64,000 nucleotides of DNA from Mytilus edulis. Lineage: Eukaryota. This document shows positions 2,870-27,884 of the stretch, one piece after another; the stretch's first letter is position 1, and each line of letters opens with the position of its first letter. The notes under the pieces were generated by a model that was given only the letters and a program-made list of their open reading frames with translations, was not told the origin of the DNA and searched no databases. The stretch is taken from NCBI RefSeq assembly GCF_963676685.1, contig NC_092349.1, forward strand, positions 2,046,001 to 2,110,000. The letters run 5' to 3'. Position numbers and translations under genes: made by a program.

Positions 2870-4783
2870 CTAACATGATTGTAATTTATATAGTCTTATT
2901 AACTCTGTTTTATCTATTACAGACAACAGATTTCGACCAACGACTAAACTATTTCCGTCACCGAAGTAATTAGGAATTTTTAATGTTGACACTGGTTTCA
3001 AATCACCATCAACCGACAGAACACGCACTGCTTTTGATTCACGTAAGAATACATATATTTTACCATCATCAAAACAAACGCCTTCTGGGGTGTCATTTAA
3101 ATCGTATGTCCATTTGACGCGTGCATTTTGATTGAAACAAGAAATAAAACTGTTGGTTTTAGTTTCAATGCTAACTACTATATTCCCATTTGGAAGACAA
3201 CATATGCTTTTTAGAGGCATGATAAAAGGATCTCCAAACTCGTTTGGTTCGCAAAGAAAATTTTCACTAAAATGTTTAAGAACATTTCCATCGACGTCGA
3301 TGATGTCAATATGCGATGTTACACCACGTGACCAATCAAAGTTAACTCTTTTCTTTGAAGCACCACTGGGACTTGAATGACTAATGACTGCAAAAGTACA
3401 ATCCGGCAACTGAGAGATACTAAAGTACGCATTTTCAGTTACTTTTTCGGATATAATACTCAAACTGTTATAAGTTGATAAACGGATAAGACGCGATTGT
3501 TTCCCAGGGGAAGTAACTAAGACATCGTCGTTTTCATGGATATTGGTGATGTCGTATATACCTTGAATCAGAACTTCATCAATGAATTGATTTTCAATAG
3601 TGTCTCTGAATCTTTGTACCTTAAAGTTTGCATTATCTATAGCAATTATGGAATGTCCATGAATAATTACACCTGTAAATCTTGCAGTTATTTTATTTTC
3701 TGATTCACTCGGATCACGTTGAATTGCTAGAAACGGGTCAAGTTCTAATGCACGAAGAGGTAAAACGTCTGATGAAAATTTGATGCGCTTGCTGCATACT
3801 GTGGCTTCTGTGTCCTCGAAGTCGACTGCATCAGCAGGAACAACATGAACCGTTCCTATCGGTTGATCAATCAGTGTTTCACATAAATTCAGAAACTTTT
3901 CGTTTAGTTCCAGTTTAAGCTCAATTGGATTATCTGATACCGCAAGCGAATAAAGCAGATCCGTATTTTTCTGCAGACTTTCCGGAATTTTTGACAACAC
4001 GGTCAAAATGTCTTTAGTTGAAGTCAGGGATTTTGATAATTCTACTTCATCACGGATTCGTTTTAAATCTTTAACAATTCCTTCTGTTCTTTTCTTCAAT
4101 TCTTCTACGTTTGTAACGCTATCAACTTTGCTCAATATGTCTAAACATTTTCGATTTATCATTTTCTCAAAATCTTGAACAATTGTCTTCAATTTGTAAA
4201 TAGTACTTCTTATCTGCTGCCTTGATTGCACCAATAATTGATCTTTGTCGATCTCTTTAAAGACAATATCCTGTCCGGTGATTATTAAATTTTCTATTTC
4301 GTCATACGCATCTCTCAATTTTTCCCTTGCTAAGTCGGCACACTTTTTGAAATTTTTGCAATTACATTCGGTACCCCTATGATTCTCAACAGCACATTCG
4401 GAACATATAATTTTATAACACCCAAAACAGAAAAAGTCACACAAGTTTTGTGGGTGATCGGAACATAGTATACCATCTTTAGGTTTTGTTTCCGTTTTTG
4501 TATCACCTGATATAGCCTGGAGTAGCAGTAGAGATAACTCGTCTGTTGGAAAGGAACTAGCCCATTGTTCTGCTGATATGGTATAAGATGACGCTGTAAT
4601 CTCGCGTCTATCCACAGGACACGAGAATTTGTTAAAACGTCTAGTTGATTCTATCAATTGGGTTAAACATTCAAAGCATATCGAATGGTCACATGGTAAT
4701 AGTTTCGGATCTTTTAAAGTGTCCCGACATATAGGACAGGATAAATGATCAGATGTTATATTATCTGCTAGTCTTCTCTGCAT
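2870..4783 (-). CDS. TRIM E3 ubiquitin ligase (RING, B-box, coiled coil, NHL-like beta-propeller), paralog 1, 637 aa
   Basis: RING CPIC..LPCDHSICFEC..CPVDR; B-box CSDH..FCFGC..ICSEC..H; helical region; C-terminal propeller-like repeats. ATG 4783 (MQRRLAD) follows acceptor ttttatAG (4786-4785), so the ORF-track start at 4801 is intronic. Confidence 0.92.
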   Translation of the reverse strand: MQRRLADNITSDHLSCPICRDTLKDPKLLPCDHSICFECLTQLIESTRRFNKFSCPVDRREITASSYTISAEQWASSFPTDELSLLLLQAISGDTKTETKPKDGILCSDHPQNLCDFFCFGCYKIICSECAVENHRGTECNCKNFKKCADLAREKLRDAYDEIENLIITGQDIVFKEIDKDQLLVQSRQQIRSTIYKLKTIVQDFEKMINRKCLDILSKVDSVTNVEELKKRTEGIVKDLKRIRDEVELSKSLTSTKDILTVLSKIPESLQKNTDLLYSLAVSDNPIELKLELNEKFLNLCETLIDQPIGTVHVVPADAVDFEDTEATVCSKRIKFSSDVLPLRALELDPFLAIQRDPSESENKITARFTGVIIHGHSIIAIDNANFKVQRFRDTIENQFIDEVLIQGIYDITNIHENDDVLVTSPGKQSRLIRLSTYNSLSIISEKVTENAYFSISQLPDCTFAVISHSSPSGASKKRVNFDWSRGVTSHIDIIDVDGNVLKHFSENFLCEPNEFGDPFIMPLKSICCLPNGNIVVSIETKTNSFISCFNQNARVKWTYDLNDTPEGVCFDDGKIYVFLRESKAVRVLSVDGDLKPVSTLKIPNYFGDGNSLVVGRNLLSVIDKTELIRLYKLQSC

Positions 4784-5437: not shown

Positions 5438-5914
5438 GTAAGATCTGATGCTCTAACAATGTTGTAGAGAGTTTAAAGTTATTGCTTGACAATAACAAAA
5501 CAAAGATAGTTCATACCAGTAGAATAACTTTTTAGAATCAAACATTTGTTAATGTTCATGGCCGGACTGAATATGTGTGAAATGTATGCCACTGGACGTA
5601 AACAACGTGTTTTGTGATTGGAAGATCAATCATTTATCGAATATAAAATAACAATAAACAAAAGAGAAACTAAAAGAATGAAAAATAATCGGCCGCAATT
5701 AACTTTTTTATTTTTAATTTAGAAAAAACAGTTAGAGAAGATTTGGTATTGACAGTCTTTTTTGACCGACAAAGACAACACAGATGAAATTAAATATACT
5801 GTAAGAATTCGATACAGATTCGAAACCAATGACTTTTGTATGTTACTTTTTCATTAATATTATTGCCAATATAATACACAGAAATACACACAACTATATA
5901 ATGTCTTTTGATTT

Positions 5915-6390
5915 ACTTACATTTTGCTCAATTACATTCAGGTAATGAGTATCACTCGAACTCTGCAGAATAAAAACTAAATTATATTATTTCTTTAAGG
6001 TAGAGATCAATTTCCGACAATGAAATATACAAAAAGTGTGTATTTTGATTTTATACTTACATTTTACTCTTTCAGCGTAAAGAACAGTGAGGAATCAAAT
6101 AGAAATGTATAATGATATTATTTCTTTACGATTAAAATGAGCAACTTTTTACATGAACATAAATACAATGTACATGCAATGCACTTTTAATATTTACTCA
6201 CATTTTCAATGCAGAATCGAAACTAAGTATTGTTGAATATTGTTTAAATTTAGAAAAATCATATGATTATATGACGTACATATACCACTTAAACTATGAC
6301 ACCAGGATTGTGTTAACATGGTTAAAAAGTATATACAAAGTTAGGAAGTTTTACTTCAGTGATTTAATTATGAACATAGGGAAATTTGCC
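5915..6390 (-). promoter_or_regulatory. TRIM upstream module copy 1 (5'UTR exon donors plus putative promoter)
   Basis: Minus-strand donors GTAAGT 5920, GTAAGT 6060, GTGAGT 6201; on the + strand GAATCGAAACT 6214-6224, TGACGTA 6272-6278, GGGAAATTTGCC 6379-6390; homologous to three other copies. Confidence 0.65.
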
Positions 6391-8428
6391 AGTATATACA
6401 ATATATACATGTATATTAAATAACGTTTTACGGATTGTTTTAATACGAATTATATGCTAATTGAATGTATAAGGAGAGACAATCCTTAATTAAAAATGTT
6501 GAAGTATATGACATTATGTTGTTAATTAATAACTCTGTTTACTACATATTTTGGTATTTATATTCATTCACTCATATGGTCTATGCATCAGGAATAAACA
6601 TTTTAGTTTTTATTATAAAACAAGTTGTTGGCAAGATTTGGGTAATGTTCTGCTCATATATTGTATTATGATATGACACTAAAGTCCTAACGAGAGGAAT
6701 TGTGCTTGATTTTCATATGCTGCAGACATAAGCTTTAACCGACGTTGTTTTTTTAGAAACACTTCCGGGTGCTGAATTTCCCCGCTGCGTCCATTTATTT
6801 GAGTTTTATGTCACATTTTGATAATCTTTATTTATCTTTCATTACATTTTACTGTCATTATTGAGGTTGTACTGTAGTTAAACATATACCCTCGGTATTT
6901 ACCGTCTTTGGGTGGGTTAACTTTATGTTCGTTTCTAAAAAAATATACCCTTGAATGGAAAGTTCACACATGTGTATTTATACTATTAACATTCCCAAAA
7001 CAGGCATGGTTTGTGAAACAGCTGTATTTACAAAGTGCAACCTACACAATTCGTTTTTCGTTGTTGTTGTTGAAATGTTTTCTTTTCCCTTCTCTTTTAT
7101 TGGGGAGAGGAAAAGGGAGTTCGCACTTAACTTACACATTCTTTTGTGGTAGGGATCAGCAGCTGAGAAAATTATTAAAATTTTCATGTTTTCCAAATTC
7201 AGAAAACTGCATAAGCTTTCATTTATAATTTACAATTTATATTTTATTACCAACGCCATTTCATTGAGAGCATACATAGATTTGTCAAATTATATCTAAC
7301 TTTAAGGCAGTTTAGAATGCTTGTTTAAATGCAGCGAACATGCGGGAAAATATGACAAAATCAGCAATCTTATAGTCAATCAAAGTTTCAAAACTCCATC
7401 TTAGATTATGAAGCATGGACATTACCTATTCCAGCGTCTCACAATTACCACTGATAACTTCATAAGTGACATTAAAGTTTGTTTTGTTTGTAGTTTTTAT
7501 TTATCTTAATCTTTTATTAATTTGTTTGACAAAAAGACTCTCAATTTTATTACGTCATTTCATTGAGAGCAAAAACAGATTTGTCACAAAATGGTCATTA
7601 TTTATCAGACCATATATTTATTGCACCCAGATGCGGCGGAAATCTTATATATCTAATTAAATTAAATTGCTTGTGTATAGTGTGGTATTTAGAAAATAAG
7701 GATTTTAGAGGGTGTACTACGTCGCTGCTAAACAAAGTGATAAGTTATTGATGTTCAGTCCGTCTGTATCTCCCCGCTCAGATTATAATAAAATTGCATA
7801 TTACGGCTTTGCGACGTCTAATACGTTAACTCCGTCTTTTGACCGGACCATATGCCTATATAACCCTGCTCAGTCGCTATGTTATTCTCGTTTCACGGCC
7901 TTGAGACGAGAGCAGGCATTATCTGCGACGTCACAATGGTTTTCGTCGTATAGATATCGTAAAATATCAGCCGCTCGACACAATGTATAAAGCTCACTCG
8001 CTTATAGGTTTCACATTGTGCCTCGCGGCTGATGTTTAACGATATCAATGTGTAGAAAATCCGATAATCTGTGCACTTGTGAAACATAACAAATGTACTA
8101 GATAAAACATTGTTGACATATTTATATTGTAAAATATCCAATATACTGATAACATTATAATCGATACATAGATAATGCCGAACTCAGAAACAGCGGTTAC
8201 TGTCCTCTTTACTACGCTACGTTGACATGATAGTTTAGTGAAGCAACGTCACCACTGTTTCGGAGTTTGATCTGATGCAATTTCTGTTTATCCCATTCGA
8301 CACATATTTTTAACTTATTGATTGAGTAAAAATATCTTTTAAAGAAATGAACCAAAACTGTATGTTCCCGCTTCTTGAAGTATATGCTTAATTTTCTCTA
8401 TAAAAATAGACTAAATGTTTTGTATTTT

Positions 8429-8759
8429 CTTACATTTTACTTATTGACATTCATGTAAAACAGTGAGGAATGCAATACTGTATTAAAATGTATGTAACTA
8501 TGTGTATGTTATTATTTCTAATATAATTATAATCAATTTTCTAGATATAAATTGACAAACCATGTGTATTTTGACATACTCACATGTTCAATACAGAATC
8601 GAAACTAATTTGTTTTTTTCTGAATACAGTTATTACGTACATGTACACAAAACATAAACAATCAACACTATGGACACAGGATTGTGTGGCAGTCTATATA
8701 TAAAGTTGGAAAGTTTATTTCTGAATAAGTGATTTATTACGCATAAAGGGGAATTTGCC
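8429..8759 (-). promoter_or_regulatory. TRIM upstream module copy 2 (no coding exon of its own)
   Basis: Donors at 8433 and 8583; GAATCGAAACT 8596-8606; TTACGTA 8633-8639; GGGGAATTTGCC 8748-8759; colinear with 6055-6390. Confidence 0.6.
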
Positions 8760-9261
8760 AATATCTATATATAGCATGTAATATTTAACTGGTTTATTTT
8801 TAAATCTGAAATTTATGTTAACCAGAGACATATATATGTATATATTGTCTCTTTGACACATTCCCCATATCCATTCTCAATTTTATAGTACAGTAAATAG
8901 ATAAAATTAGGACCTACATGTAATTACTAAACAATTCAGTAAATACTTGTAATTACTTATCAATTTAGTAATTACATATAATATTTACTGATTGGTACAG
9001 TGATGATATTAATTTAATTTACTGATTTTTTTTGTAATTTTTACAGCTTTTGACTGTCTTAACATTTTTCTTTTAATATTTTGGACATAATTCAAGAAAC
9101 CTTATTGAAAAGTGAAAACAACATATTATACATTTCATGCATATTGACCGCTTTTCTTGATAAACCTTCATGTAGAACACTCATAAGCGAATATTTGAAA
9201 GCCAAGGATTTATAAGGACGCAAAACGTTATAGAGCTATTATAATAAAAAAAAAAATTAAC

Positions 9262-9400
9262 TTTTATAGCTGACTATGCGGTATGGGCTTTGGTCATTGT
9301 TGAAGGCAGTACGGTGACCTATAGTTGTTTATTTCTTTGTCATTTTGGTGTCTTGAGGAGAGTCGTCTCATTGGCAATTATACCACATCTTTTTTTTTAT
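9262..9400 (+). repeat. 5'-truncated copy of an abundant non-LTR/SINE-like 3' end
   Basis: Same sequence at ~10590-10725, 34611-34818, 46990-47090 and reverse-complemented from 36068. Confidence 0.75.
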
Positions 9401-9827
9401 GAATAGACTAGCCCAACCATCTAAGGTCAACTTTGCCTGTGGGAGTTGACAGTAAAGGGGTACAGTTTGTAAGGTTTACTTGATGGTTAAGAAATCAAAG
9501 GTCCTTTTTTGTACAGTGTGTGTATTGAAACTGAAATCCTCAAATTTGACAACAATAAACCAAACTACCGAAAAAACCTGGCATTTTGTTAGATCAAAAT
9601 ATATCTCAGATAGTTGTATCAAAATCCAAGTTAATTTGAAAAAGTTATAGAAATAATTTAAGATGAATACTAGTATCTGGATTTAATCAATTCTTTTTTA
9701 CCTTTTAATTAAATTCTTTTATTTCACAGCAACGAACCAACACTACCAAATATCCTGGAATTTTGTAAGACCTATATTTAATTTAGTTAAATGGGCTGAT
9801 TCAAACCAGTCAAGACTAAATTCAAAG

Positions 9828-10915
9828 GTCAAGACTAGTCGAGACAGGTCGAGACAGGTCGATACTGATCATGCTAAGTCAAAACTTGTCAAAACATGTC
9901 GAGACTATTCAAGCCTTGGTCAAGACCATTTCAGACTACACCGAGATAATCAAATACTGAATCAGACCTATTAAGTAAAGTCGAGTACAGTTAAGAAAGT
10001 ACTGCCGAGATAACGTCAAGACTAGTCGAGTAAAATCTGTGATTTTACTGGTCGAGCACAAACTATGGTCTATTCAGACTCTGAGCAGTTTGTAGTGCAT
10101 TATGTAACCCTGTTTTAGGTCTGTACTATGATAGACTATGGTACAGATATATGGTAATGTGAACTGCAGTCACACAAGATAGCCAATAAAACTGATAAAT
10201 ATCAGTAAGACCTTCAGGCACCTATGATTGTCTATGGTACAAAGTTGTATGACTTCAAGTTACCTATAAACTATGAAACAGATAGACGCTATGGGAGCTG
10301 CAGGCACATATACATCTTATCGCTTATCTCGGCTGACCCGGCCGCTTGAACTTTTGACGCATGCAACAATCACTTTTCCGTTGTGGAAACCTGCAGTCAT
10401 CTATAATGAGCTACGGTACATACAGATAGCAGTGTGACCTGCAGGTACTTTTATAGCCTGAGGTACAGATAAGTATCATCTATGTCCCGCAGGCTCATAG
10501 TATAGGCTATAGTGCATATATAAGGTGAGGTGACCTAAAGGCTCCTATGATGGGCTATGGAACAGAGTTCATTATTTTGCACATAAATTAGACCGTTAAT
10601 TTTTTGGGCTTTGCTCATTATTATCACCGTAAGGGGACTTTCAGTTGTTTTGTTAATTTCTGTGTCATTGTGTCTATTGTGGAGAGCTGTCTCATTGACA
10701 ATAATATCACATCTTCGCTTTATATAGATGTACATGTATATGGGGCAGATATTTGGAGATGTGACCTGCAGGCACATATTACGGTCTATGGTACATATAA
10801 TTAGCAGTGTGACCTACAGAATCAAATGATAGGCGATGTTACATATCTTAATTGATGTAATTTTCAGGCACATTTGCTACAGATAAATTTTGATACGACA
10901 TGCATGCACCTGTAG
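9828..10915. repeat. Degenerate minisatellites (~10-bp gtcgagacta-like units, then ~40-45-bp units with acctgcagg..ctatggtaca)
   Basis: Recurrent gtc(a/g)agac in 9828-10080; recurrent ctatggtaca and ctgcaggca in 10130-10915, interrupted by a SINE-like end at ~10590-10725. Confidence 0.55.
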
Positions 10916-12738
10916 TATTGTTTATTATTGTACACGTAGGTTTGATAAGTGGTGTCTAGCAGTAATTCTTCACATAAGCCTTTATCACCGTTCAAAACAT
11001 AAACATGAACTAAAATTAAAAATCATACAAGACTAACAATGGAAAGAGGCTCCTGACTTGGGACATTCTCAAAATGGAGCGGAGTTAAGATGTTTGTGAG
11101 ATCTCAACCCTCCCCTTTACCTCTAAGAGACAACAACCCGACAAGAGAAGAAAACAGTCCTAGGTCACCAACGGGTCCTCTACTCAGCGAGAACATATCG
11201 CACCCGGATCTTATATTATTCATGTTATATGTTTGCATATTTTCAACATTCCCTGAAACGTTTCCTTGTTTTTTTCAAAAGAATAATTAATAGTATTTAA
11301 AAATCAAATACTACTATAATTTATTAATAATGTCAGTATACTAAAAGATATAAAAGCAAGAGGTATTCACCTGTGCATTTTACACTATTCTAAAATATGC
11401 TTCCCGTTAATTTAAACACCTCAAAATACGTTTTATATATAGTAATCAATGTCATAGTTGTGATCAGTGTATATTACATTACAATACAATATGACATAAT
11501 ACCATTAGACGCTTTACAATTCACACATATGTAAAAGAAGGTAAACAACTATCGTCTTACTTCTGAGAAGATCAAGTTATTTTTTTTTCTCGAAGAAACA
11601 AATATCGTTCGAATAAATAGGAACATAACATATTCACAGTCCTTTAATTAAACTTGACCAACGTGTTGATTTTTAGCTGTTGTTAATGTATTTTAATCTC
11701 AAATTTCAATGTCCAATAACTATCTGCAATAATTATTTGGGTAAACACTAACGAAGGGTGTTAATAGAAATATATATATGTGGTATGATGACTAGAGCGA
11801 ATAAGACATCTATCCATCCAAGTAATAATGTGTAAATTTATTCTAAAAAGTAAACAATTATAGGTCAACGAATAGCTTTCAACATGGAATTTCGACTCAC
11901 ACCCAAAATCAATCTATAACGGGCGCCAGTATAAAACAATCAAACAGTAAGACCAATGGTATAATCTATATAAAAAAAAAGAGAAACGAGAAAAACTTAT
12001 GAACCACATCAATAAACAAAACCCACTGAAGAAAGATCGGTTTAAACGTTCAAACAGGAGCTAACAATCACCATTTACTGACACAGTTGACTGTAGTGAA
12101 ACATAGAAAGACGCACTAAAAAATACTAATCAAAACGGTTATCCGCGATAAAAAAATGTTCCCCTTGTATCTTATATTTACAAAAAAATAAATAAAAAAT
12201 AAACATACACTTCACGAGTAAATTTGATCTCTAACAAAATGTACATACATTATTAATATAAAAAGAGAGACGTAAAACAATGTCCAATAAATAACATATC
12301 TTGAAGTACCTTCATAAACTCATCATTGTACCGTGATACAATGTTTATATGCCAAATGCGTATACACACATTAATTCAAAATGCATTTAAACAAAACGCA
12401 CATGGGGATGATAGAAACATTAATATCTTGGTTAATACCCTTATCAATTTACAGAAATGGACTCTTTTATATTTGCAAAATGATAGTTTACTGAAACCGT
12501 AAAACAAATTTTGAATTTGCTTATATATTTGGAAAACAGATAGTACTGTATTATTGCCAGCCGTTGTAGAAATAACCCATTTTATATTGATATGAATGAT
12601 TCATTATCAACATGTTCAAAATTGAGTATTTTGTATCATTAATAATTGTTATAGCATAATAATAGTAACATGGTGTGTAAGTGACATAATACGAGGAATT
12701 TGGGATTAGTAAATTCAACATTGGGTGAGAGCGAATGC

Positions 12739-12955
12739 ACTACTACTACTATGATAACTATAAGTTTTACTACAAATACTACTACAACTACTACTACTAC
12801 CACAACACTATTACTACAACTATAACTTATAGTTTTACTACTACTACGTCGTACTACTACTACTACTACTACTACGTCGTACTACTACTACTACGTACTA
12901 CTATTACTACTACTACTACTACGTACTTCTACTACTACGTACTACTATTACTACG

Positions 12956-12997
<42 letters not shown>

Positions 12998-13029
12998 GTA
13001 CTACTACTAATACGTACTACTACGTACTA
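12739..13029. repeat. (TAC)n microsatellite running into an assembly gap
   Basis: tactactac tracts with tacg interruptions; resumes briefly after the Ns. Confidence 0.95.
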
Positions 13030-13543
13030 NNNNNNNNNNNNNNNNNNNNNNNNNNNNNNNNNNNNNNNNNNNNNNNNNNNNNNNNNNNNNNNNNNNNNNN
13101 NNNNNNNNNNNNNNNNNNNNNNNNNNNNNNNNNNNNNNNNNNNNNNNNNNNNNNNNNNNNNNNNNNNNNNNNNNNNNNNNNNNNNNNNNNNNNNNNNNNN
13201 NNNNNNNNNNNNNNNNNNNNNNNNNNNNNNNNNNNNNNNNNNNNNNNNNNNNNNNNNNNNNNNNNNNNNNNNNNNNNNNNNNNNNNNNNNNNNNNNNNNN
13301 NNNNNNNNNNNNNNNNNNNNNNNNNNNNNNNNNNNNNNNNNNNNNNNNNNNNNNNNNNNNNNNNNNNNNNNNNNNNNNNNNNNNNNNNNNNNNNNNNNNN
13401 NNNNNNNNNNNNNNNNNNNNNNNNNNNNNNNNNNNNNNNNNNNNNNNNNNNNNNNNNNNNNNNNNNNNNNNNNNNNNNNNNNNNNNNNNNNNNNNNNNNN
13501 NNNNNNNNNNNNNNNNNNNNNNNNNNNNNNNNNNNNNNNNNNN
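13030..13543. other. Assembly gap (514 N)
   Basis: Run of N. Confidence 0.99.
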
Positions 13544-13786
13544 ACTACTTCTACTATTATTTCGTTTAAGTTCATGAACATTTCTTAATATATTTGTATA
13601 TACATACATGTATATATAAACAATTTATTTACAAAAACGTTTATAAATATGAAAAGTTTTCTAAATAATTGATTTATGTACGAGGTCCTAAATTATGTGG
13701 AGCAAACCTTTTTAAAATCAACGACTCTTTTACAAACGTACAATGCCTTCCCATCCACAAATCATATACACATTGGTTCAATTTTA

Positions 13787-15866
13787 TCATCGCAACTTAT
13801 ATATTTTAATTAAATCAGTTTTGTCTATCACAGTCAAAAGATTTCTGCAAACAATTAAATTATTCCCGTCACCGAAGTAGTTAGAAAGTCTTAACGTTGA
13901 CACTGGTTTCAAATCTCCCTCAACTGATAAAACACGCACTACTTTCGATTCGCGTAAGAATACATATATTCTGCCATCATAAAAACAAACACCTTCTGGG
14001 GTGTCATTTAAATTGTATGTCCATTTGACGCGTCCGCTTTGATTAATGCAAGAAATAAAGTTGTTTGTTTTTGATTCAATGCTAACCACTATAGCCCCAT
14101 TTGGAAGACAACACACATTATGTAGAGGCATTATAAAAGGATTACCGAATTCGGATGGTTCACAAATACAAGACTCACTTAAATGTGTTAAAACATTTCC
14201 CTCGACGTTGATAATATCAATATGTGACGTTACCCCACGTGACCATTCAAAATTAATCCTCTTGTTTGAAACGCCACAGGGACTTGAATGACAAATCACT
14301 GCGTACAGATGATCTGGTAATCGTGATATATCATAATACGCCTGATCAGTTACAGTCTTTGAAACTATGCCCAAACATTTGTAAGTTGACAAACGGAAGA
14401 GACACGACTGTTTCCCAGGGGCAGTAACTAGGACATTGTCGTCGTCTTGAATATTTGCAATAGCGTATACACCTTGAATTGAAATTTCATCAATAAACTG
14501 TTCTTTCACATTGATCCGGAATCTTTGTACCTTAAAATTGGCATTGTCTATCACAATTATCGCATGTCCATAAAGAATTAGACCTGTAAATCTTGCGGTT
14601 ATTTTGTTCTCTAGTCCAATTGGGTCAACTTTATCACTGTACTATTGTGCATATTTTAGGGGCCAGCTGAAGGACACCTACGGGTGCGGGAATTCTCGCT
14701 ACATTGAAGACCCATTGGTTGCCTTCGGCTGTTGTTTGCTCTATGGTCGGGTGGTTGTCGCTTTGACATATTCACCATTTCCTTTCTCAATTTTATTTAA
14801 TCTCGAGAAAAGGTTCCAGTTCAAGTGCTCGAGAAGGTAATACGTCTGAAGAAAATTTGACTCTCTGACTGCAAACTGTGGCCTCCGTATCTTCAAAATC
14901 TAAGGAATCAGCAGGCAGAACGTGAACTGTTCCAATTGGTTGATCAACAAGTAAGTCACACAATTCAAGAAACGTTTCATTTAGTTCAAGTTTTATCCCA
15001 ATTGGATCATCTGATACTGCAAGGGAATTTAGCAGATCAGTATTTTTCTGTATACTGTCGGGAATTTTCGATAAAACAGTCAACATATCCTCGGTTGAAG
15101 TTTGAGATTTGGAATGTTCTATGTCACCACGGACTCTTTCTAATTCTTTAACGATTCCTTCCGTTTTTTTCTGCAGTTGTTCAACGTTTACAACGCTTTC
15201 AACTTTGTTCAAAATGTCTAAACTCTTTCGATTTACCCTTTTCTCGAAATCATGAACGATGCTCTTTAATTTAAAAATAGTAGTTTTAATTTGCTGTCTT
15301 GATTGCATTAGGAGTTGATCTTTTCCAATCTCTTTATAATTAGTAACGATGTCCCGTCCGTAGCTAATTATATTTTCTATTTCGTCAATCGAATTTTTCA
15401 ATTTCTCTCTTGCTAAGTCGGCACATATTTTGAAATTCTTGCAATCACAGTCGAAACTGCTATGTTTGTCAACAGCACACTCGGAACATATTATCTGATA
15501 ACACCCGAAACAGAAAAAGTCACAAAATTTCTGAGGATGTTCGGAACAAGGTATATCATTTTTATAGTTTTCTTGCGTTTTAACACCACCCGAGATAGCT
15601 TGTAATAACACTACAGCTAAATCGTCTGTTGGAAAAGATTTAGCCCATTCTTCTGCTGATATTGTGTAAGATGGCATTGTTATCTCACGTCGGTCCACGG
15701 GGCACGTGACTTTGTTAAAACGTCTTGTTGAGTTTATCAACTGGGTCAAACATTCACAACATAAAGTATGGTCACATGGTAATAATTTTGGGTTTTTTAA
15801 TGTGTCTCTACATATAGGACAAGATAAATGATCAGATGCTATGTTATCTGCAAGTCTTCTCTGCAT
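13787..15866 (-). pseudogene. TRIM paralog 2, disrupted by a 166-bp insertion (or a truncated RING-B-box-coiled-coil allele)
   Basis: ATG 15866 after acceptor AG 15869-15868. Removing 14630-14795 restores ...LEIK|VDPIGLENKITARFTG... and a 1914-nt (637 aa) frame colinear with the paralogs. Confidence 0.85.
14630..14795 (+). mobile_element. 5'-truncated 3' end of a Penelope-like retroelement family
   Basis: Absent at the equivalent site of paralogs 1 and 3; its reverse complement matches 54445-54611, the 3' end of the RT-bearing element. Confidence 0.85.
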
Positions 15867-18123
15867 TCTGTAAAAGAATAAATGTTTTATGATCTGCTTA
15901 TATCTCTGAAACAGTAGAGGAAACACCTCAACTTATAATGTATAAAAACAGAATTTCTATAAGAGTCAGCCACCAATCGTATGCAGGAGAAACCATTCCC
16001 TTAACCAAGTGTAATATATATTAATATCAAATATCGTCATCGATACCTAAACCTTTAAACATGTATACAAGTTCTGGAAGTAATTGTGCTGGAAAATTAT
16101 TTTTATCCGTATACAATTTTAGCTGCATGCATATGTTAACGGAATAGAAGCATGATAGAGATTATTAGTGTTTAAGCTAAAACGACTAATTTATTAAATA
16201 ACCAATGTTCTTTCTTTTGAGTATTATTATTTAGTGATTTATTCGGCGAATTTACACATCAATAAATTTCTAAGAGACTACAATATTTCTCATCCAAAAC
16301 CAAGTTATGTGAATCCATTTTTATACTAATTGAATTAATCATTTAAGTATGACGTGTCTTTACCTAAAAAGGTTAAAGAGCAAAAACAAAAATAAAAAAA
16401 AATACGGAGGTTGCCAATTATTTTCGCAATGATCTTCTAAGACCATGTGCTTTTCAGAGTAAAGCATCATCGTATCGTCCACCGCTACTTATGTTTCTAG
16501 AGCGTAAATTATAATATTAATTTCAGAATTTTTTTTTTTTAAATGATATTCTATCATCACGTACTTATACCTACATTATATTATTTGACATTGGACTAGT
16601 TTTTTGTATTTGATGTAGCCTTGCAATTGTTTCTATTCGATCGCCACTGAGAAGTCTTCTGAAATCTAAACAGTGTCTTTCATACCAAATTATAACTCTG
16701 ATATCTGTTTTGAATTATTTTGCAACCAATGGGTTGAAGACAATACGGATCGACGTTCGGTCACCTTGTGTATCAAAAACGCAGTAATCAGCATTTAAGT
16801 GTTGAAAAAAAATAACATTGATACCACCATACCGTTTCATCAGGTAATAATCTTCTACAGTAGTTCGTACATATACATATATATCTTATATTGTGTGTTT
16901 TAAGTAAATTGATGAAAATCCTGAATGATACTGATGTATAAGTTTAGCATGGTATCAATATCAGTTTATAATGTAATGACATACATAGAATTGTCTTATA
17001 ACTTGTTGTTACATGCATCGTTATTTCATTTATATGTTGTTTAATATTATAATTATCTGAATTTGGATCACGCCTCTATTGTGCTCTTTCCAATAAAATA
17101 TTGAATTGAATTGAATTGATATAATAATTATCTGTATATATGTCATGTATGTACTGTTTATAAAATGTTGATTTTTTCGAGAGAAGGCACACCTATTCGG
17201 CGTTTCGGTTTGTTATGCTCTTCGAATCCTAATTAATTTGCATTCGATATAGAAGGACCGAGCAATTTGATTATTAAATGATAAGCCTAGTATCTTTGAT
17301 AATTTCGAAATTTGTTCCGTGACTGCGAGTAAACGTAGCTTGTAACTTCATGTTTTGTCTCCCTAGTTTGCTGTTTGTTTTGCTTCGTGTCGGTCTTATG
17401 AGTCAAACTATTTCCATCTGGTTTTTATAGTTTGTTCTTGAATTGTGCTGTGCATGGTTAGGGAGATTTATGCTTGTGACAAGATTGACCATGTTGCGTT
17501 CTCTTTATTCCGGTTATGTTTCGGGCGCCCTTGATGTAATGGTTGTCGTGTGTTGCTTTGTGTGATCCTTTTATCTTTTATCATAAATCAGGATGATCAT
17601 TTTAATTCATTTGAATTATTACACAATACCATGACTAACGCCATGTAAATCCATGGCATATAGTTATAATATGTAGATTCAGTTAGGAGGGTTAAGAGAA
17701 TTGAGTTTGATTAGGTAGCCTTTTCTACAGGACACAATCGAGCATAGGTCAAACACCATGTATATAGCCATTCTATGAACTCGACTTGTTCAACATAGAA
17801 CATGCTTTTGAGTTTGCATGTGGGTGGGGAGATGGTTGAAACAACATTAATATAGAAAAGTCTCTTATTAGATACCACTAATATGATACATTTTAAGTGA
17901 GAATAACTTTGTAATTTACTAACTTATATCCAATCATTTTATTGTTGTTTAGAACGCATTTTTCTCCTAGCAGTACTGAAGAGTCTACTTGGCTCTCTTT
18001 ATAATGGACTTTCATTATCCGAATAAAAAAAAATAATACAATACATAACTATATTGTAAATCGTCAACATATGAATATTTCTTGAATATAACAATAATGT
18101 ATGAACTTTGATATACAAGATAT

Positions 18124-18317
18124 ACTTACATTTACTTATTCGGTTTATTCACAAGCAATCAGGTTAAGCACATAAATGCAATGCAGAAACGAAAGTAATG
18201 TCTTGTTGAATAGTTTAAATATAGAACATAACATGACATTACGGTTACCACATGATTGTGTTCAAATCAATGACAATGACTTCAGTAATTTAATATGTAC
18301 TGCTAAGGAAGCCTGCC
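18124..18317 (-). promoter_or_regulatory. TRIM upstream module copy 3
   Basis: Donor GTAAGT at 18129; GAAACGAAAGT 18186-18196; acttcagtaattt block; degenerate GGAAGCCTGCC 18307-18317. Confidence 0.6.
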
Positions 18318-20737
18318 AATGCTTATATCATATTCTACCCTAATTTCAGTTTATCGGTATGTGGGTCATTTAAAAAAATGTAGAATGTTATGTATACACC
18401 CGAATATGCTATTTTTTTTTTATCTTAAAGGCAAATACAGTTGTCAGTGCTTAACTGAAAGTGTATAGAATTTTTCCATCAGATAATAAAAAAAAAAATA
18501 CGATTTAGATCTATTTTGATAAGATTGAAATATATGTAAGTCCAATTTTTGCGTGAAAAGTTAGAACTAAAACTACTGACAGATCAGAAAAAACGGTTTC
18601 GATGAATGATTCAGCCAAATAAAGATTGTATACAGGATTACGACAGACTCTGTAACATCGTCAATACTTGTCCCAGCTAACGCTTATTACGGTTTACGAA
18701 CTTAGAGTCTTTGTTATTCTATGCATAGTGTGTTTATGCATGTGTACATGTGTACATATCACGACAAAAAAAAAAAAGAAAATCGACAAACAACTAAAAA
18801 CATAACATATCACAAAAACTAAAGAAAGTGAAATACTAAACTCATGACAGTTGTTGTGTTCTACATGTAATCTCTTGTTTAAATAGATCGCACACGGCAT
18901 TTAGGAGTCATAACAAAGACAGGTTTGCTCGGAGTCGGAATATTGTGTTCGAGTAAGGTGACATGTCTTCCTGCAAACTGTAAGCTTCTAAGTTAGCACC
19001 TTCTAAAGCCGTCTCAGCGTGTTGGTCTAGTACAAAGAAGGGCACATATTCATATAACATGCGTTTTCGATAAAATATTATGCAATTACTAAAGTGGTAT
19101 TTATGAGACTTTATCTACTTTGATTATATGATGGAATTTTATCATTAAGTAAAAGCGAGTCAGAATTCTTTACGGAATGAGTGTCGGGTTCAGTTTTAAG
19201 ATCACAATTGCTTGTAAAATGTCTTATTACTTTTAAGTCACTGCTTAACAATAAATAATCATAACCAAAATCTTCCTTTTTCTAGAATGTAACCTAACGA
19301 ATCAAACTTACAGGGTTTGTTCTTGTATAAACCACACGACACCAGCAACATGTGAAGGTCACCTCCGTGATAGGGTTCGTCTTTTTTTGCCACGGTGTTG
19401 TCAGTTTATTTTCGACTTACAAGTTTGAACGTCCATTTGGTATCCTTCGCTTCTCTTTCTTTAAGTCGTCACAACGAAAGTTTAACAGTCTTCATAATTG
19501 ATTGATCGTAATGAAATCTCAGCGTCACAGATGATAACTGATGTGTTTAAATTGTTTTAGTCATATGAACACTGAGTATGTTTATATCATTAATAACATT
19601 GCCATGTGTAGAGTAGAAAATGTGTAGATTAAAGGAGCACATATTATCACCCGCTTATTTTTTTCAATTTATCCACACTGTTATTTCTAGTTAGTGTTTT
19701 GTAGACGGATACTTGTTTCATCGTCATTTGAATTACCATGATATTGTCAATCTTTCTTTCGACTTATTGATACGAGATTTGATGTACCCTCGGCAGCTTC
19801 CGCCTCTTTATTTTTTAAAACATTTGTGTGTGATATGTCTTGGAAAACGTTCAAGTTGGAGCGTCACTAATGGGGATGTATTTAAACATGACAATTATGC
19901 CGAGAAAAAAAAATCTAAACTCAAATATTGCAGAGTTTTGACATGCCACTGCATGTATTTTTAACAGCTTCTATGTAATCTAAGATCTTCTAAATCTCAC
20001 ATTTTGTGGCGCCTGTTCCAATTAATGATCCTGTTTCAATGTTTCAGGCATTTGGGCAATTTGCTGTTGCTCATCTATGAATAAGTTTAAAAGGACAAGG
20101 TCAGAATGACTTCTCATCAAATTCGAAACTTTAAAAATAAATAGAAAATATTTGTGTATAATAAAAACTTATAGACAACTTTTCTGTGAAGAGGTACATG
20201 AGGTATGAGACTTATTTTTATGATTCGCGGGGTTTGCCATACTAATGTTTACTTTCAAAAGTATTGATGCAGAGATTCCTTGATAACGTCCAGTGACAAA
20301 TAGTTGATCCGTATTCAGGAGAAAAACTTTTAAACTGTTTATACTATAGGTAGGTTATGCAAGATGGGACGAACAGGAACGGAATGCCATGAAATATACC
20401 CGTGGAAAACACTTGTATCTTAATGGAGGAAAACATTTGCCTTACAAACAACCAACAACGGACCTTAGATGTTTTTGATTAATGTAGACAACATCACGCC
20501 TACTGCTAGATCTTCCCTACACGAGAAATCAGATTGAACGCTAACCCCCGCACATATACATGTGTTCAGAAATCATATTAAGTTAAGCTTTATTCTTCAA
20601 TTCTAAACAGATGCCAATGAGACAACTCTCCACAAGAGACCAAAATGACATAAAAATTTATATATAAGTTTAGTAGTAATATATATATATATCAAAGTCA
20701 TTTTAACTGTGTCACTAATTTACTTTACTAACATATA

Positions 20738-22027
20738 CACATGGAAAAAAGTATTGCAACACCTTGATTTTTTAAAACTTGAAAAATCAGCTTTTTTATT
20801 TAGGATGGAATATGATCAAATATTTGTAAAATAATATTGAAACGTAGTTAATGATAACATTGGCATTAAAACGACTATAAAATGTATGAAAAAACAGTTC
20901 TATCTAACCAAAATTTTTATAACAAAATGAAGTGTTTTTTGTACAAAAAAAATGCATTTTGCAACTTTTACTGTGGTCGAACTTTACAATGTCAGATATT
21001 TCAAAATTAATCTTTAGATGATTGTTCACATCATTGTTGATCGTTATACGCCAAAGAATTAGTACTTTGTGCGAAGCCTCCATTCAAAGTGATAACCGCA
21101 TCTTAACGTCTTCTGATTACTTCCATAAGTCGACTAATTTGTTGCTAAGGTAGCAGCAACCATTATTGACGAAGGGTATTGTTTATTTCATGACGTGTGT
21201 GAACTACGGTGTCCTTTCGTGCATTTTACGCCCAATAGTGTCCTATATATGCTCGATATGGTTCAAAGTCGGGCTACAATCGGGCCAAGGAAGATAAACC
21301 GTATTCCATTGGGACAATGGATCTTCCTCTACGATGCTAATTTCCAACTTTGGTGAGCTCTGCACTATATTGGATACGGGCAACTGTGTGTCTGTTCGGA
21401 GGCAAAGGCCTCCAAAATGGTCTTATCGCACGATAACCAGTAGCAATGAGCCGATCCCGAACAGTTCTTGTTTAAGGGCTCATAATTATATGGTCATCAC
21501 TCTCTTTTCAGGATTGTATCGTTTTCAACGGGTTTTCTTCTGACCAACCTCCATTATGCTTAATTTTCCCTAGCAGATGTTATAGAGAGTCTTCTTAATC
21601 TCTTTAACATCGTTTGTTGCCTAATTTGTATTCTCAAAACGACTTATAGAGGAATGGTGATGACCAACAATACGTGCAATTGTCACAGCGACATACCTGC
21701 TTCTCTCATGCTGATTATCTGCTATCTCGCTGCAGTTATGAGTTGTGGATGACCAATTACAAGGTGTCAATCACATAACTTTATAAACTTGGTTATTCAA
21801 ATTGTTGAAAACAATGAGGATAAAAACATATGTCTTATTGTTTACGAGTACAGTAGCTGCATATGTAGTTAAAAACTTATCGAGTCGATATTTATTTATT
21901 TAACTCAGGTGATATTTAAATAATGTTTAACTAGTTCTATTTCCACAAATTATATGACAAAAAAATAAAGAGTGTTTTTTTTTTAATTTGAATTTCAATT
22001 TGGTGTTGCAATACTTTTTTCCATGTG
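20738..22027 (-). mobile_element. Tc1/mariner element with decayed transposase
   Basis: Perfect 26-bp TIR cacatggaaaaaagtattgcaacacc (20738-20763 / 22002-22027); TA duplication; minus-strand remnants PWPDCSPTLNHIEHI* (~21245-21290, WPxxSPDLNPIE motif) and an HTH-like segment near 21660-21730. Confidence 0.9.
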
Positions 22028-22069
22028 TATATAAACAATACGTCTGTATAAAACATTTATTCATTTCTA

Positions 22070-23977
22070 TCATTGTAATTTATAAAGTTTTATAGAACTA
22101 GTTTTGTCTACCACTGTCAAAAGATTTCTGACTACGAGTAAACTACTGCCATCACCAATATAATGAGGAAGTTTAAAGGTGGACGTTGGTTTCAAACCAC
22201 CCTCAATCGACAGGACACGCACTACCTGAGATTCCCGTAGGAACACATATATTTTTCCATCATAAAAACTAACGCCTTCTGAAGTATCATTTAAATTATA
22301 AGTCCATTTGACGCGTCCGTTTTGTTTAATGCAAGAAATAAAACTGTTGGTTTTAGTTTCAATGCTAACTACTATAGTCCCATTAGGAAGGCAGCACATA
22401 CTTTTTAGAGGCATAATAAAGGGATCACCGAATTCGGTTGGTTCACAAAGAAAGGATTCACTAAAATGTTTCAAAACATTTCCATCGACGTTGATGATAT
22501 CAATATGTGACGTAACCCCACGTGACCAATCAAAATTAGCTCTCTTTTTGAATGCACTGCTAGGTCTTGAGTGACAAATGACTGCGAACGCAGAATCTGG
22601 CAAACGCGAAATATCATAATAGGCCTTATCAGTAACTGTCTCTGACATTATGCTCAAACTCTTGTAAGTTGATAATCGAAAAAGACGCGATTGTGTCCCA
22701 GGGGAAGTAACTAATAAATCGTCGTTGTCATGGATATTGGTGATATCGTATGCACCTGGTATTGCAATTGCATCGATGAAACTATCTTTAATTGTGTCTC
22801 GGAATCTTTTTACTTTAAAGTTTGAATTGTCAACGGCAATTATTGAATGTCCGTGAAGTGTTAAACCTGTAAATCTTGCAGAATTGTTTTTCTCTAGTCC
22901 ACTTGGTTCATCTTTAATCTGGAGAAATGGTTCAAGTTCAAGTGCACGAGAAGGTAAAACATTTGATGAAAATTTGATTCGCTGGTTGCACACTGTAGCC
23001 TCCGTGTCTTCGAAATATAATTTATCCGCACGAACGACATGAACTGATCCTATTGGTTGATCCACAAGTTTGTCACACAAATTCAAAAACGTTTCATTTA
23101 GTTCAAGTTTTATCTCAATTGGGTCATCTGACACTCCAAGTGAATTGAACCGATCAGTATTTTTCTGTAGATTTTCAGGAACATTTGATAAAACGGTTAG
23201 CATATCCTTGGTTGAAGTTTGTGATTTTACATATTCTATTTCATCACGGACTCGTTTCAAATCTTTAACAATTTCTTCTGTTTTTTTCTGTAGTTCTTCT
23301 ACGTTTACAACGCTTTCAACTTTGCTTAATATGTCCAGACATTTTCTATTTACCATTTTCTCAAAATTATAAACGATGGACTTCAATCTTAGAACGGTAT
23401 CTTTAATCTGCTGTCTGGATTGCGACAAGAGTTGATCTTTTTCAATCTCTTTAGTGACGATTTCCTGTCCGTGACAAATTAGGCTTTCTATTTCGTCAGA
23501 TGCATCTCCTAATTTCTCTCTTGCTAAGTCGGCACAGTTTTTGAACTTTTTGCAATTGCATTCGGTACTTCTGTGATGCTCAACAGCACATTCTGAACAT
23601 ATAATATGATAACACCAAAAACAGAAAAAGTCACAAACATTATGAGGGTGTTCGGAACAAAGTATCGCATTTTTAGATTTTCCTTGCGTTGTCACATCAC
23701 CTGCAACAGCCTGAAGCAAAACTATAGCTAACTCGTCTGTTGGAAAGGAATTAGCCCATTCTTCTGCTGATATATTATAAGAAGGCGCTGTTATCTCTCG
23801 TCGGTCTACTGGGCATGAAAATTTGTTGTAACGTCTTGACGAATGTATCAGCTGGGTTAAACATTCACAACATAAAGTATGGTCACATGGTAGTAGTTTC
23901 GGATCTTGAAAAGGGTCTTGACATATAGGACAAGACAAATGGTCAGATGCTATATTATCCGCAAGTCGTCTCTGCAT
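22070..23977 (-). CDS. TRIM E3 ubiquitin ligase paralog 3, 635 aa
   Basis: Same architecture; 39 of the first 50 aa identical to paralog 1; acceptor ttttcAG 23980-23979 one base before the ATG. Confidence 0.92.
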   Translation of the reverse strand: MQRRLADNIASDHLSCPICQDPFQDPKLLPCDHTLCCECLTQLIHSSRRYNKFSCPVDRREITAPSYNISAEEWANSFPTDELAIVLLQAVAGDVTTQGKSKNAILCSEHPHNVCDFFCFWCYHIICSECAVEHHRSTECNCKKFKNCADLAREKLGDASDEIESLICHGQEIVTKEIEKDQLLSQSRQQIKDTVLRLKSIVYNFEKMVNRKCLDILSKVESVVNVEELQKKTEEIVKDLKRVRDEIEYVKSQTSTKDMLTVLSNVPENLQKNTDRFNSLGVSDDPIEIKLELNETFLNLCDKLVDQPIGSVHVVRADKLYFEDTEATVCNQRIKFSSNVLPSRALELEPFLQIKDEPSGLEKNNSARFTGLTLHGHSIIAVDNSNFKVKRFRDTIKDSFIDAIAIPGAYDITNIHDNDDLLVTSPGTQSRLFRLSTYKSLSIMSETVTDKAYYDISRLPDSAFAVICHSRPSSAFKKRANFDWSRGVTSHIDIINVDGNVLKHFSESFLCEPTEFGDPFIMPLKSMCCLPNGTIVVSIETKTNSFISCIKQNGRVKWTYNLNDTSEGVSFYDGKIYVFLRESQVVRVLSIEGGLKPTSTFKLPHYIGDGSSLLVVRNLLTVVDKTSSIKLYKLQ

Positions 23978-26523
23978 TCTGAAAAAGAATATATAGATAT
24001 TGTAAGATGTGGTATAATTGTCAATGAGATAACTCTCTATCTAAGTCATAATTCAAAACACTTAAACCACTACAGGTAAAGAAACGGTCTTCAACACGGA
24101 GCTTTGGCTCACACCAAACAGCAAGCTATAAAGTGCCACCAAAAATTACAAGTGTAAAACCATTCAAACGGGAATTATAACCAACAGTATAATCTATATA
24201 GGAAATGTGTGATGTGTTTTTCCAGGCATGCTGGTTTTTTTTTGTATCATCGTCCTCTTTGTTAAACAACCGATCAAAACATTATTGTAGCTACAATTGC
24301 TCATTTACCAACATGAACCGGATTGAACTTTTAAGATAACTTGGGAATATAATTATGGTCGTATTTCAGATCGGAAATAACGCTTGCTAAAAAAAGGCGT
24401 TAATTTCCTATGCGGGATTAACAAGTACACAGCCACGTCCGGTAAGAATGAGTATGTTTAGTCCGTTTCCTCGTTTAGAGAGTGCGCCACTACCTGTACG
24501 TTAAGAGCCCTCGAATAGCTGTTTTGGGAATTGACTATATGTGGTCTGCTACAAGTTAAAATGTATTTCCAGTATATATATATATATCCTCATTTTCCGC
24601 TGACAGTCAAGATTTCCCGACTTTCTATTCATCCCAGGCGGCCTATTACTACAGGAACAGCCTCTACATGGGTAACTATCGTATTTATCTCATTTTGTTT
24701 AAATTAAATATTTGCCTCTAGACATTAAGCAACTAATAATCAATCATCAATCAGTCAGCACCACAGGCAATCACATGTTATTCTGTATGTTGAATCTTAT
24801 TTATTTATTGCTTGCGCAAACACACTTTCTACAGAAAGATAAGGCTTAAATTGAAAATAAAAAAACTGCATGTTTAGACTAATTGTTTACAATCAAAAAT
24901 TGGACTTCAACTGCCTCTAAAACTACCTTTACCGAAAACTTCAATCAACAACTTTTAACCCTGAAGCCGGATAGACGGACAAAGGACGAAGGAACGGATG
25001 TACAGACCAAAAAACATAATGCCCCTTTCTGGGGTATGAAAGTGTTAGAAAGAGTATTATGCTTTTGTTAGAGATGATGATTTTTTTAGCTCTTTTTTAA
25101 CGTCGTCAGTGTCAAATATTTTAAACAAATCTAGGAAAACAAATTAACAATTAAACTTAATAGTTGTATGGCCTTATATAGTAGCCAATTGAACTGCAGA
25201 CGGTGAGGCACTTACTACCTGTACATGGCCTAGGATTTTGCATTCCAAATCAAACACTTTCAGGGCTCTGGAATACTAAATTTATAGAGGGGGATGACGT
25301 TTAGATTATGTTAATATATCTGTTGGCTGTTATATTTGTGACTGTTTTGAATTAAAGGAGATCAGGTATGAACACCGACACTAAGTCAAGTAAATAGTTT
25401 GAGAATAAATACATATATAATGTAATTTTATAGTTCTTTTATTTACAAAGAAAAATTAACTAAATATATTTAGGAATGGGAACTATAAATCCCTGTGCAT
25501 CATCGCCACCGGAAATGGTTACCTACGAAGCGGCTAGCATTGGAAAAATATAAACAATGTAAGAATTCCTTTAAAATTAACCATTTCTACAGATAAAGTA
25601 AACGCTTTCGAAAGTATTTTAAAAAGTTCATTTTTTTTTTATGTCACATGTAGCAAAGAAAGAGAAGATTTTTTGTTGTACTCTTTGGTACGAGAAAAAT
25701 CATTATATTTCAAGACAAAGTTTTTGTTTATGATTCTGTGATCATTTTATATTTACTGAAATTCATTATCCAAAAGATGCATTTTTTTGTGCATATATCT
25801 GTGTGTTTCTTTATTCTACATTGGCTAAAGGTATTGGGGGAGGGGTTGAGATCTCAGAAAACATTTGTCTGCTAATTGTTGGCAAATAAAAAATAAAAGC
25901 TTCATATATCAGAAAATCGTTTCAAAAAACGGTAACCTCATCGAAACGGTAGAAATGGTTAAACATAAAGGAATCATTACTCGTTTTCATTTTTTTTTTA
26001 CTTTCTCTCCAAAAACCAATTTCAGATGATGACACAAAAAGTTCATTGGAGTTCATTGAACTTTAAGCATTATATATTCCTGGTAGTTTTTCCCACCTAT
26101 TAAAATATTTGCAAGCTGGAAAATATTACCTATTTCAGCAAAACATCCTATCCTCATATTTATCATTTGTATCTATTGAAATGGCTATACAATCATTCTA
26201 AGGTTGTCATTTTTGGAAAATAAAGTGGTTAGAAAACGAAAGTAGAATGTTCAAAATTGTTATGTATGACCTTAGATTGGTTCTTACAGGAAGTTTTCAT
26301 AATATTCGACCATATACACATTTCTAATTTTATCGAGCTGCAGTGAAAATTCTGCTTCGTTTCGCAACACATGAATTTTCAACATCCACAACAGTAACCA
26401 AGGTTCGCCTAGTACATATATGACATTTTGTACATTTGTTAACATATCAATATTTTCTTGATTGATATGATAAATTTTTATCATGAAAGTATATATTAAC
26501 TACGTAATGGTATTTACTATATT

Positions 26524-26745
26524 ACTTACATTTTACTCATTTGGTTTATTTACAATGAATTAATGTTACATAAATTACACATGCAGAATCGAAAGTAGAA
26601 TTATGTAGAATTATATTCCTGTAGAGTGTATGACGTATGTACATACGAATAATCACCAAACCATATCATAGATTTTGTGACAGATTGTGTCTATAAGTAC
26701 ATTTACTTCAGTGATTAAAATTTGTTGCAGAAATACATTCTACCA
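26524..26745 (-). promoter_or_regulatory. TRIM upstream module copy 4 (first exon may add MSKI in frame)
   Basis: Donor GTAAGT at 26529 preceded by ATGAGTAAAAT; GAATCGAAAGT 26586-26596; TGACGTA 26631-26637; ttacttcagtgatt 26703-26716. Confidence 0.6.
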
Positions 26746-26910: not shown

Positions 26911-27107
26911 CAATTTGCTCTTTCGAAGTAAATAGACGCAGATATATTAAAGATATGAGACGACTGGATGCAAAGCAATACTAAATAAATGCTCAGTAGG
27001 AATTAAAACGAATTAAAATAAAACATTTAATTTTGGCAAATTATTACAATTTCATATGAAAAAACAATAATAGACGTTAAAGTTAATCCAATCAATGTTC
27101 AGCACCA
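26911..27107 (-). repeat. Split direct repeat B2 (197 bp)
   Basis: No differences seen against 27594-27790. Confidence 0.95.
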
Positions 27108-27376
27108 CCATTCATCAACAACACTTTGACCACACGTCTGTATTCAGCAGGCAACGATAAATCGGACATCTACACCATTGTGAATTAATCCGTATCCAAA
27201 TTATCGGTTATAAACTCTATTGCTCCTTTATTGTCCTTTAATCAGTCGATTATATTGTAAATTCGTATATCCACAGTAACACCGTCAAGGAACATACACT
27301 GAAAAATAAAACTTCCACAGAAAATGAGACTGAAACTACTGATTATAAATATTGGGTGGGATAAATAATGGGAGGG

Positions 27377-27790: not shown

Positions 27791-27884
27791 AAACCCCAAC
27801 GGCCAAACAGTAACTACAGCACATTGATTGATATTAAACAAAATTTAAAAGCTATTTAAGTTACAAGCAAAAATAATGAAAATA

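Follow-up and report, generated by a model that had tools for sequence, protein, structure and literature searches.

Four probable promoter-and-first-exon units with a putative IRF half-site in a tandem TRIM gene cluster of Mytilus edulis

We analysed a stretch of 64,000 nucleotides (nt) of the blue mussel Mytilus edulis (contig NC_092349.1, positions 2,046,001 to 2,110,000 of assembly GCF_963676685.1; hereafter the window), which holds a tandem cluster of TRIM genes and four copies of a non-coding sequence module. A first-pass annotation had described this module as IRF-like, cyclic-AMP-response-element (CRE)-like and kappaB-like motifs upstream of every TRIM paralogue, and had likened it to the vertebrate interferon-beta (IFN-beta) enhanceosome. 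We find it highly probable that the copies are duplicated promoter-and-first-exon units, four of them serving three tandem TRIM genes. That these units have an IRF-driven immune function is somewhat favoured, and the combined reading, in which anatomy and function together make them IRF-responsive promoters with sites close to the transcription start, has about an even chance of being correct. The arrangement is plausible and fairly ordinary; the copies, the order of their blocks, their splice donors and the splicing of gene 1 out of this region are directly visible in the data.

In the reading that we prefer, an ancestral promoter and its non-coding first exon would have been duplicated along with the TRIM gene, with a further duplication ahead of gene 1. 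A mussel IRF would bind the half-site, placed some 70 nt past the start, and raise transcription during double-stranded RNA or virus signalling. The blocks ACACAATC and AATCACT probably act as basal, core or proximal promoter elements, and non-canonical kappaB-like (Rel) sites could add Rel input to gene 1 only.

Four module copies and three TRIM genes

Pattern searches recovered the words first reported for the module: GAA(T/A)CGAAA(C/G)T at 6214, 8596, 18186 and 26586, with one extra match inside the gene 2 coding region; T(G/T)ACGTA at 6272, 8633 and 26631; and GGG(A/G)AATTTGCC at 6379 and 8748. The shared motif order was also confirmed, with the blocks following each other on the gene strand in all four copies as TGGYA, AAT(C/T)ACT, ACACAATC, an ACGT-like word, the IRF-like site and a splice donor. 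Of these, ACACAATC had been overlooked, and it is invariant in 4/4 copies. The four copies are real, but the description of the module as upstream of every TRIM paralogue conceals the double set at gene 1: there are three genes rather than four, and gene 1 has both copy 1 and copy 2 upstream of it.

The gaps between blocks differ by 20–45 nt from copy to copy. The distance to the IRF-like site is 88, 80, 64 and 93 nt from ACACAATC, and 166, 153, 121 and 148 nt from TGGYA, in copies 1 to 4, respectively. The 14-mer CAGAAWCGAAASTA occurs four times in the window against 0.17 expected (0/100 shuffles), and ACTTCAGTRATTWA three times, in copies 1, 3 and 4, against 0.31 expected; both patterns were derived from the copies themselves, so these counts are post hoc. 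As candidate names, the AATCACT block might be called Gfi1-like or Pbx-Hox-like, and TGGCA an NFI half-site. Coordinates are collected in Table 1.

Table 1. Positions in the window of the TRIM genes, the module copies and associated features
Feature	Position	Strand	Details
TRIM gene 1, coding exon	2870..4783	-	637 amino acids (aa); acceptor 4784/4785 directly before ATG
Non-coding exon of gene 1	5921..5962	-	42 nt; acceptor-like TTCTGCAG, donor GTAAGT
Module copy 1 (gene 1)	6061..6391	-	TGGCA/kappaB-like 6391-6379; AATCACTGAAGT 6364-6353; TATA-like 6335; ACACAATC 6313-6306; CATAGT 6298 (candidate start); ACGTCA 6277; IRF-like site; donors after 6202 and 6061
IRF half-site-like 14-mer, copy 1	6212..6225	+	GAAA on the opposite strand from the gene
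Module copy 2 (second gene 1 unit)	8434..8760	-	kappaB-like 8760-8748; AATCACT 8734; TATATA 8702; ACACAATC 8687; CATAGT 8672; ACGTAA 8638; IRF-like site; donor after 8584
IRF half-site-like 14-mer, copy 2	8594..8607	+	within the annotated exon and its in-frame extension
TRIM gene 2	13787..15866	-	broken in this haplotype by a dispersed repeat with an in-frame stop
Module copy 3 (upstream of gene 2)	18130..18318	-	TGGCAG 18318; AATTACTGAAGT 18290; ACACAATC 18261; degenerate CCGTAA 18244; IRF-like 18197-18184; donor after 18130; linked to gene 2 by homology only
TRIM gene 3, coding exon	22070..23977	-	635 aa; acceptor directly before ATG
Partial fifth copy of the IRF block (gene 3 intron 1)	26232..26250	+	contains GAAAACGAAAGT
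Module copy 4 (upstream of gene 3)	26530..26745	-	TGGTAG 26745; AATCACTGAAGT 26716; ACACAATC 26690; ACGTCA 26636; IRF-like 26597-26584; ATG at 26540; donor after 26530

All three TRIM genes in the window lie on the minus strand, and each has a single coding exon with a splice acceptor directly 5' of its ATG; in gene 1 this acceptor, at 4784, is where spliced RNA contigs of run X2 and run X7 stop. The proteins are 70–76% identical to each other, and the genes differ at 33–42% of fourfold sites. The dispersed repeat in gene 2 is about 166 bp long (14631–14797) and has another copy at 54443–54611. Because other records (the P0005 cluster) carry an intact gene 2 of 637 aa, the interruption is likely to be a polymorphic loss-of-function allele. 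Among 66 TRIM-like matches in the 1.37-Gb genome, only the three cluster loci exceed 70% identity, on which ground we reject a fourth TRIM gene to match the fourth module copy, and the best match outside the cluster does not exceed 50%, over 48 aa. Identity to records labelled Mytilus is up to 100%, three matching TRIM genes are annotated in M. californianus, and 11 close relatives make up all of this clade that was found.

The three genes belong to the TRIM proteins by their RING, B-box and coiled coil. Pfam detects a RING in all three, and the B-box of gene 1 has an E value of 3e-4, below Pfam's cut-off. The N terminus (RING plus B-box) best matches TRIM3, over residues 16–141, TRIM2 and TRIM56. 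A low-confidence structure model (mean predicted local distance difference test score, pLDDT, of 50) has long helices at 149–282 and suggests an NHL-like propeller at the C terminus: NHL domains (Brat and Mei-P26) are its top Foldseek matches, with other propellers scoring nearly equal, and Pfam gave no NHL match in the cluster proteins. Our literature search, which lay largely outside subscription journals, found nothing on the cluster, its promoter or its gene identifiers.

The module is private to this cluster, and is therefore a paralogue footprint rather than a genome-wide cassette. A DNA search with copy 1, which can miss diverged copies, returned only copy 1. Genome-wide, the 14-mer has 54 matches, fewer than the 68 of its reversed control, which rejects it as a genome-wide regulatory word. 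We examined 35 of the 54 sites, 31 of them outside the cluster; none of these 31 carries two other module blocks, and one has a donor-like word. A transposon-borne origin is likewise rejected, as neither the DNA search nor the 31 outside sites gave a dispersed copy.

Probable first exons and transcription starts

Each copy ends at a GT(G/A)AGT donor, with the IRF-like site 10 nt (copies 1 and 2) or 54 nt (copies 3 and 4) upstream of it. The IRF and CRE sites are at or within the first exon and not ahead of it: in copy 2 the IRF-like and CRE-like words are inside an annotated exon, and the IRF-like site of copy 1 is probably exonic too. For copy 1 the evidence comes from RNA. A contig from run X2 contains the gene 1 splice joint 4784–5921 (CT..AC; side 42, depth 43). 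In run X7, which is long-read RNA, a gene 1 contig spans the coding exon and 56 unplaced 5' letters; depth is 3.17 in bin 6160–6403 compared with 0.07 in bin 5916–6159, and the total in the former bin corresponds to 94 nt at the depth of the gene 1 contig. Because of the 56 extra letters and the confinement of depth to bin 6160–6403, the data fit a copy 1 exon that ends at donor 6202 and reaches at least 6257, past the IRF-like site, through a joint that we infer.

Copies 2 and 4 are, according to gene models, first exons of genes 1 and 3. The annotated isoform P0004 has a 20-residue N-terminal extension, of which 19 of 19 residues map to 8642–8586, directly before the donor of copy 2; this model may derive from prediction on the very same sequence. 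Isoform P0017 extends to 8655, and the copy 2 models reach 35–48 nt upstream of the IRF-like site. For copy 4, gene 3 records from four Mytilus species have an MSKI extension that agrees with an ATG at 26540 followed by the donor after 26530; a tripeptide query for MSKI gave five further matches in the region, and a donor follows only at copy 4.

In copies 1 and 2, TATA-like words stand about 30–37 nt before CATAGT, which suggests starts near 6297 and 8671; transcription would then begin close to CATAGT, with the IRF site some 70 nt further on. Both words are missing from copy 3, and copy 4 is without CATAGT; RNA contigs do not themselves reveal transcription starts. Two other roles for the IRF-like block were considered. 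The competing suggestion that it overlaps an initiator at TTAGTT is disfavoured, because that word occurs in only two of the four copies (1 and 2) and the copy 2 gene models begin well upstream of the site. A plus-strand acceptor (tgcag/aatcg) is provisionally rejected, as copies 3 and 4 have no pyrimidine tract.

The best-kept block as a candidate IRF site

It is plausible, judging from its letters, to read the best-kept block as an IRF-type half-site. IRFs recognize the half-site consensus AANNGAAA and the dimer site GAAANNGAAA (PMC5861432). The IRF-like 14-mer is the best-kept block of the module, with 12 of its 14 positions invariant, and of its two variable letters one occupies an N of AANNGAAA and the other the G/C position that follows GAAA. 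The half-site core is present in 4/4 copies, and AATCGAAACT agrees with 9 of the 10 letters of the core of an IRF3 monomer probe used in electrophoretic mobility shift assays (PMC5861432). The IRF-like label thus survives in that the block fits AANNGAAA and varies at free positions only, but it is a single half-site, inside or at the first exon and not upstream of it.

The genome offers candidate partners for such a site, with IRF domains encoded at four loci. Two of these form a tandem pair of IRF-domain genes (G000:C9:21139892-21150828), and the two others lie on C5 and C11. A perfect GAAAGTGAAAGT is found at the viperin gene, 329 nt ahead of the ATG; it is on the opposite strand from the gene and has the same orientation as the module sites; the sequence resembling an ISRE (interferon-stimulated response element) there is GAAAGTGAAAGTA. 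A donor-like GTATGA follows this viperin site (L005:9284-9354, G000:C12) at a distance of about 60 nt, which resembles the arrangement in copies 3 and 4. The 157.5 kb upstream of 16 loci resembling interferon-stimulated genes (ISGs) contain 9 strict ISREs, compared with 3 in 200 kb of random sequence (p=0.03, one-sided); these loci include CARD loci, which are candidate RIG-I-like receptors only and whose upstream regions are provisional. Before 20 other TRIM genes there are 4 in 120 kb. A search for an NMI locus gave no match.

Several results weigh against IRF-responsive first-exon promoters. The dimer site GAAANNGAAA (ISRE) is found in 0/4 copies, leaving single half-sites, and its canonical form occurs only in the partial fifth copy at 26232, as GAAAACGAAAGT; random DNA has 2.45 matches to AANNGAAA alone per kb. 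None of the 16 ISG-like upstream regions contains the exact module motif, which does occur in 1 of the 20 other TRIM upstream regions. The copy 2 donor has no depth in any of the four runs checked, and copy 3 is assigned to gene 2 as its first-exon unit by homology alone. Isoform P0020 of M. trossulus, read from the protein only, seems to use copy 2 with the IRF-bearing segment skipped, apparently running from the start of the copy 2 exon to about 8390. A TRIM56-labelled contig reported to rise 3.61-fold after poly(I:C) in mussel (PMC7773633) could not be mapped among the 66 TRIM-like matches. Finally, in a neutral simulation without indels, with divergence set to that at fourfold sites of the TRIM genes, a 12-of-14 block arises in 24%, 4.7% and 0.8% of runs at p=0.33, 0.38 and 0.42, so one block alone is no proof of selection. 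Separately, comparison of the P0020 extension with window 8357–8655 suggests a deletion or an extra splice that removes the copy 2 IRF-like site in M. trossulus.

The most serious alternative, unlikely as we judge it to be, is that the blocks are conserved core-promoter or 5' untranslated elements of a constitutive or tissue-specific promoter and that their IRF look is incidental. The best-kept block could then serve as an initiator or a downstream promoter element, or else in splicing or translation close to the donor, which would suit its short distance from the donor and its probable place in exon 1. ACACAATC and the donor context equal the IRF block in how well they are kept, and the gene 1 coding region is found in 14 of 24 listed runs, which are RNA or probable RNA and come from several studies, as expected of such a promoter. 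However, the letters of the block vary precisely at the positions left free in the IRF consensus, exon 1 of the copies has no shared RNA structure (0 conserved pairs), and TTAGTT is confined to half of the copies. Gene 1 coding depth was also zero in two raw-read runs, each with 8.25 million reads, indicating that expression is not ubiquitous, although absence of the tissue or of the gene could explain these zeros.

We regard it as quite improbable that the blocks are mere remnants of homology left by tandem duplication or gene conversion, with motifs not separately selected. All copies do share one ancestor, the CRE-like word is at chance level, and the simulated frequencies above allow one such block to persist by drift. 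Copies 1–2, 1–3 and 3–4 align far above shuffles and 1–4 marginally, and 2–3 and 2–4 do not. Against residual homology, several collinear blocks survive together despite intervening indels, which makes selection on the module blocks likely; a 12-of-14 block together with an 8-nt run arose in only 14%, 2.7% and 0.4% of the same simulated runs; and 0 of 10 intron pairs align above shuffles, although the homology of these intron segments is uncertain.

The remaining alternative depends on the CRE-like and kappaB-like words. The window holds 12 matches to the heptamer T(G/T)ACGTA where 17.5 would be expected, which puts this word at chance level; copy 3 has it in broken form (CCGTAA). The canonical kappaB consensus is GGGRNNYYCC, from which copies 1 to 4 differ by 2, 1, 2 and 4 mismatches, so that no copy has a canonical site; sites with one mismatch occur 1.27 times per kb at random. 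The kappaB pattern first proposed, with up to two mismatches allowed, finds copies 1 and 2 and misses 3 and 4 (5 matches against 2.5 expected). The claim of a kappaB-like site that is degenerate in copies 3 and 4 is hence right about its confinement to the gene 1 copies, but the site is non-canonical even there. The IFN-beta enhanceosome is a compact set of ATF, IRF and kappaB sites at fixed spacing, and in the module we found neither fixed spacing nor all sites upstream. The analogy is unsupported, and an upstream ATF/IRF/NF-kB module for cooperative virus induction of every paralogue is the least probable of the alternatives: three vertebrate-like motifs stand in equal order in copies 1 and 2, and the kappaB-like site is kept by the gene 1 copies only, but the sites are spread over 120–170 nt with variable gaps and one IRF half-site, the CRE-like and kappaB-like words are as weak as just described, and copy 2 has its IRF and CRE sites within an annotated exon.

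A further extension of IRF-responsive first-exon promoters, which we consider rather unlikely, is that a native bivalve antiviral promoter unit, with an IRF site in exon 1 and a Rel site upstream, was duplicated. Gene 1 would have two inducible starts, one of them adding 20 N-terminal residues by reading across the IRF site, and genes 2 and 3 would have lost Rel input, so that the paralogues split immune triggers. If true, this would provide a test case for how an animal without interferon wires genes like those stimulated by interferon. With their differences at the kappaB-like site, the four natural promoter variants would offer a compact native test set for IRF and Rel logic in mussels.

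Other elements lie near the cluster. A tyrosine-recombinase retrotransposon, with a layout that we take to be Ngaro-like, occupies 26911–33395 on the minus strand, with gag-like, reverse transcriptase, recombinase and SGNH-hydrolase open reading frames. Its split direct repeats (A1 33174–33395, B1 27594–27790, A2 27377–27598, B2 26911–27107) are 99–100% identical; it looks recent, and its end is about 165 bp upstream of copy 4. A near-perfect palindromic element of 150 bp (4842–4992) sits in the gene 1 intron, about 60 nt from the acceptor. A tandem duplication of about 2–2.8 kb spans 35420–40521 (36468–38405 versus 38653–40521, 85% identity), and there are short G-rich repeats around 35506–35627.

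Comparison with known systems

Like the vertebrate IFN-beta enhanceosome, the module has ATF-like, IRF-like and kappaB-like words in one region; unlike it, the module has variable spacing, a spread of 120–170 nt and one half-site, and it straddles the likely start. The encoded proteins resemble TRIM-NHL and TRIM2-3-56-like E3 ligases in having a RING and B-box like those of TRIM3, TRIM2 and TRIM56 and a predicted C-terminal fold whose best matches are the NHL domains of Brat and Mei-P26. They differ in lacking a Pfam NHL match, with the fold coming from a low-confidence model, and in having only 11 close relatives.

The IRF element or ISRE of ISGs (PMC5861432) is the nearest relative of the candidate site. 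The two have in common the AANNGAAA core with a (G/C)T tail near a proposed start, at a candidate immune gene, and the mussel sites share their orientation with the viperin ISRE of the same genome. They differ in that the mussel copies, bar the partial fifth, are single half-sites, likely downstream of the start and putative. Oyster IRF2 and IRF8 activate ISRE reporters (PMC5557890), oyster and scallop IRFs (CgIRF1/2/8 and CfIRF1/2) bind ISREs according to earlier work cited in PMC13524488, and bivalve IRFs respond to poly(I:C) (PMC5557890, PMC13524488). The action of bivalve IRFs on ISREs is thus already known, mostly through mammalian reporters, and no new kind of system is indicated here. 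Those mollusc studies relied on either mammalian ISRE reporters or the CgIFNLP promoter, whereas the mussel site is native and was defined by paralogue footprinting. In Nematostella, genes induced by poly(I:C) are enriched for IRF, NF-kB and STAT motifs, and the region concerned takes in the first exon and intron (PMC8476169); that enrichment is genome-wide among induced genes, whereas the mussel case is one locus known from sequence.

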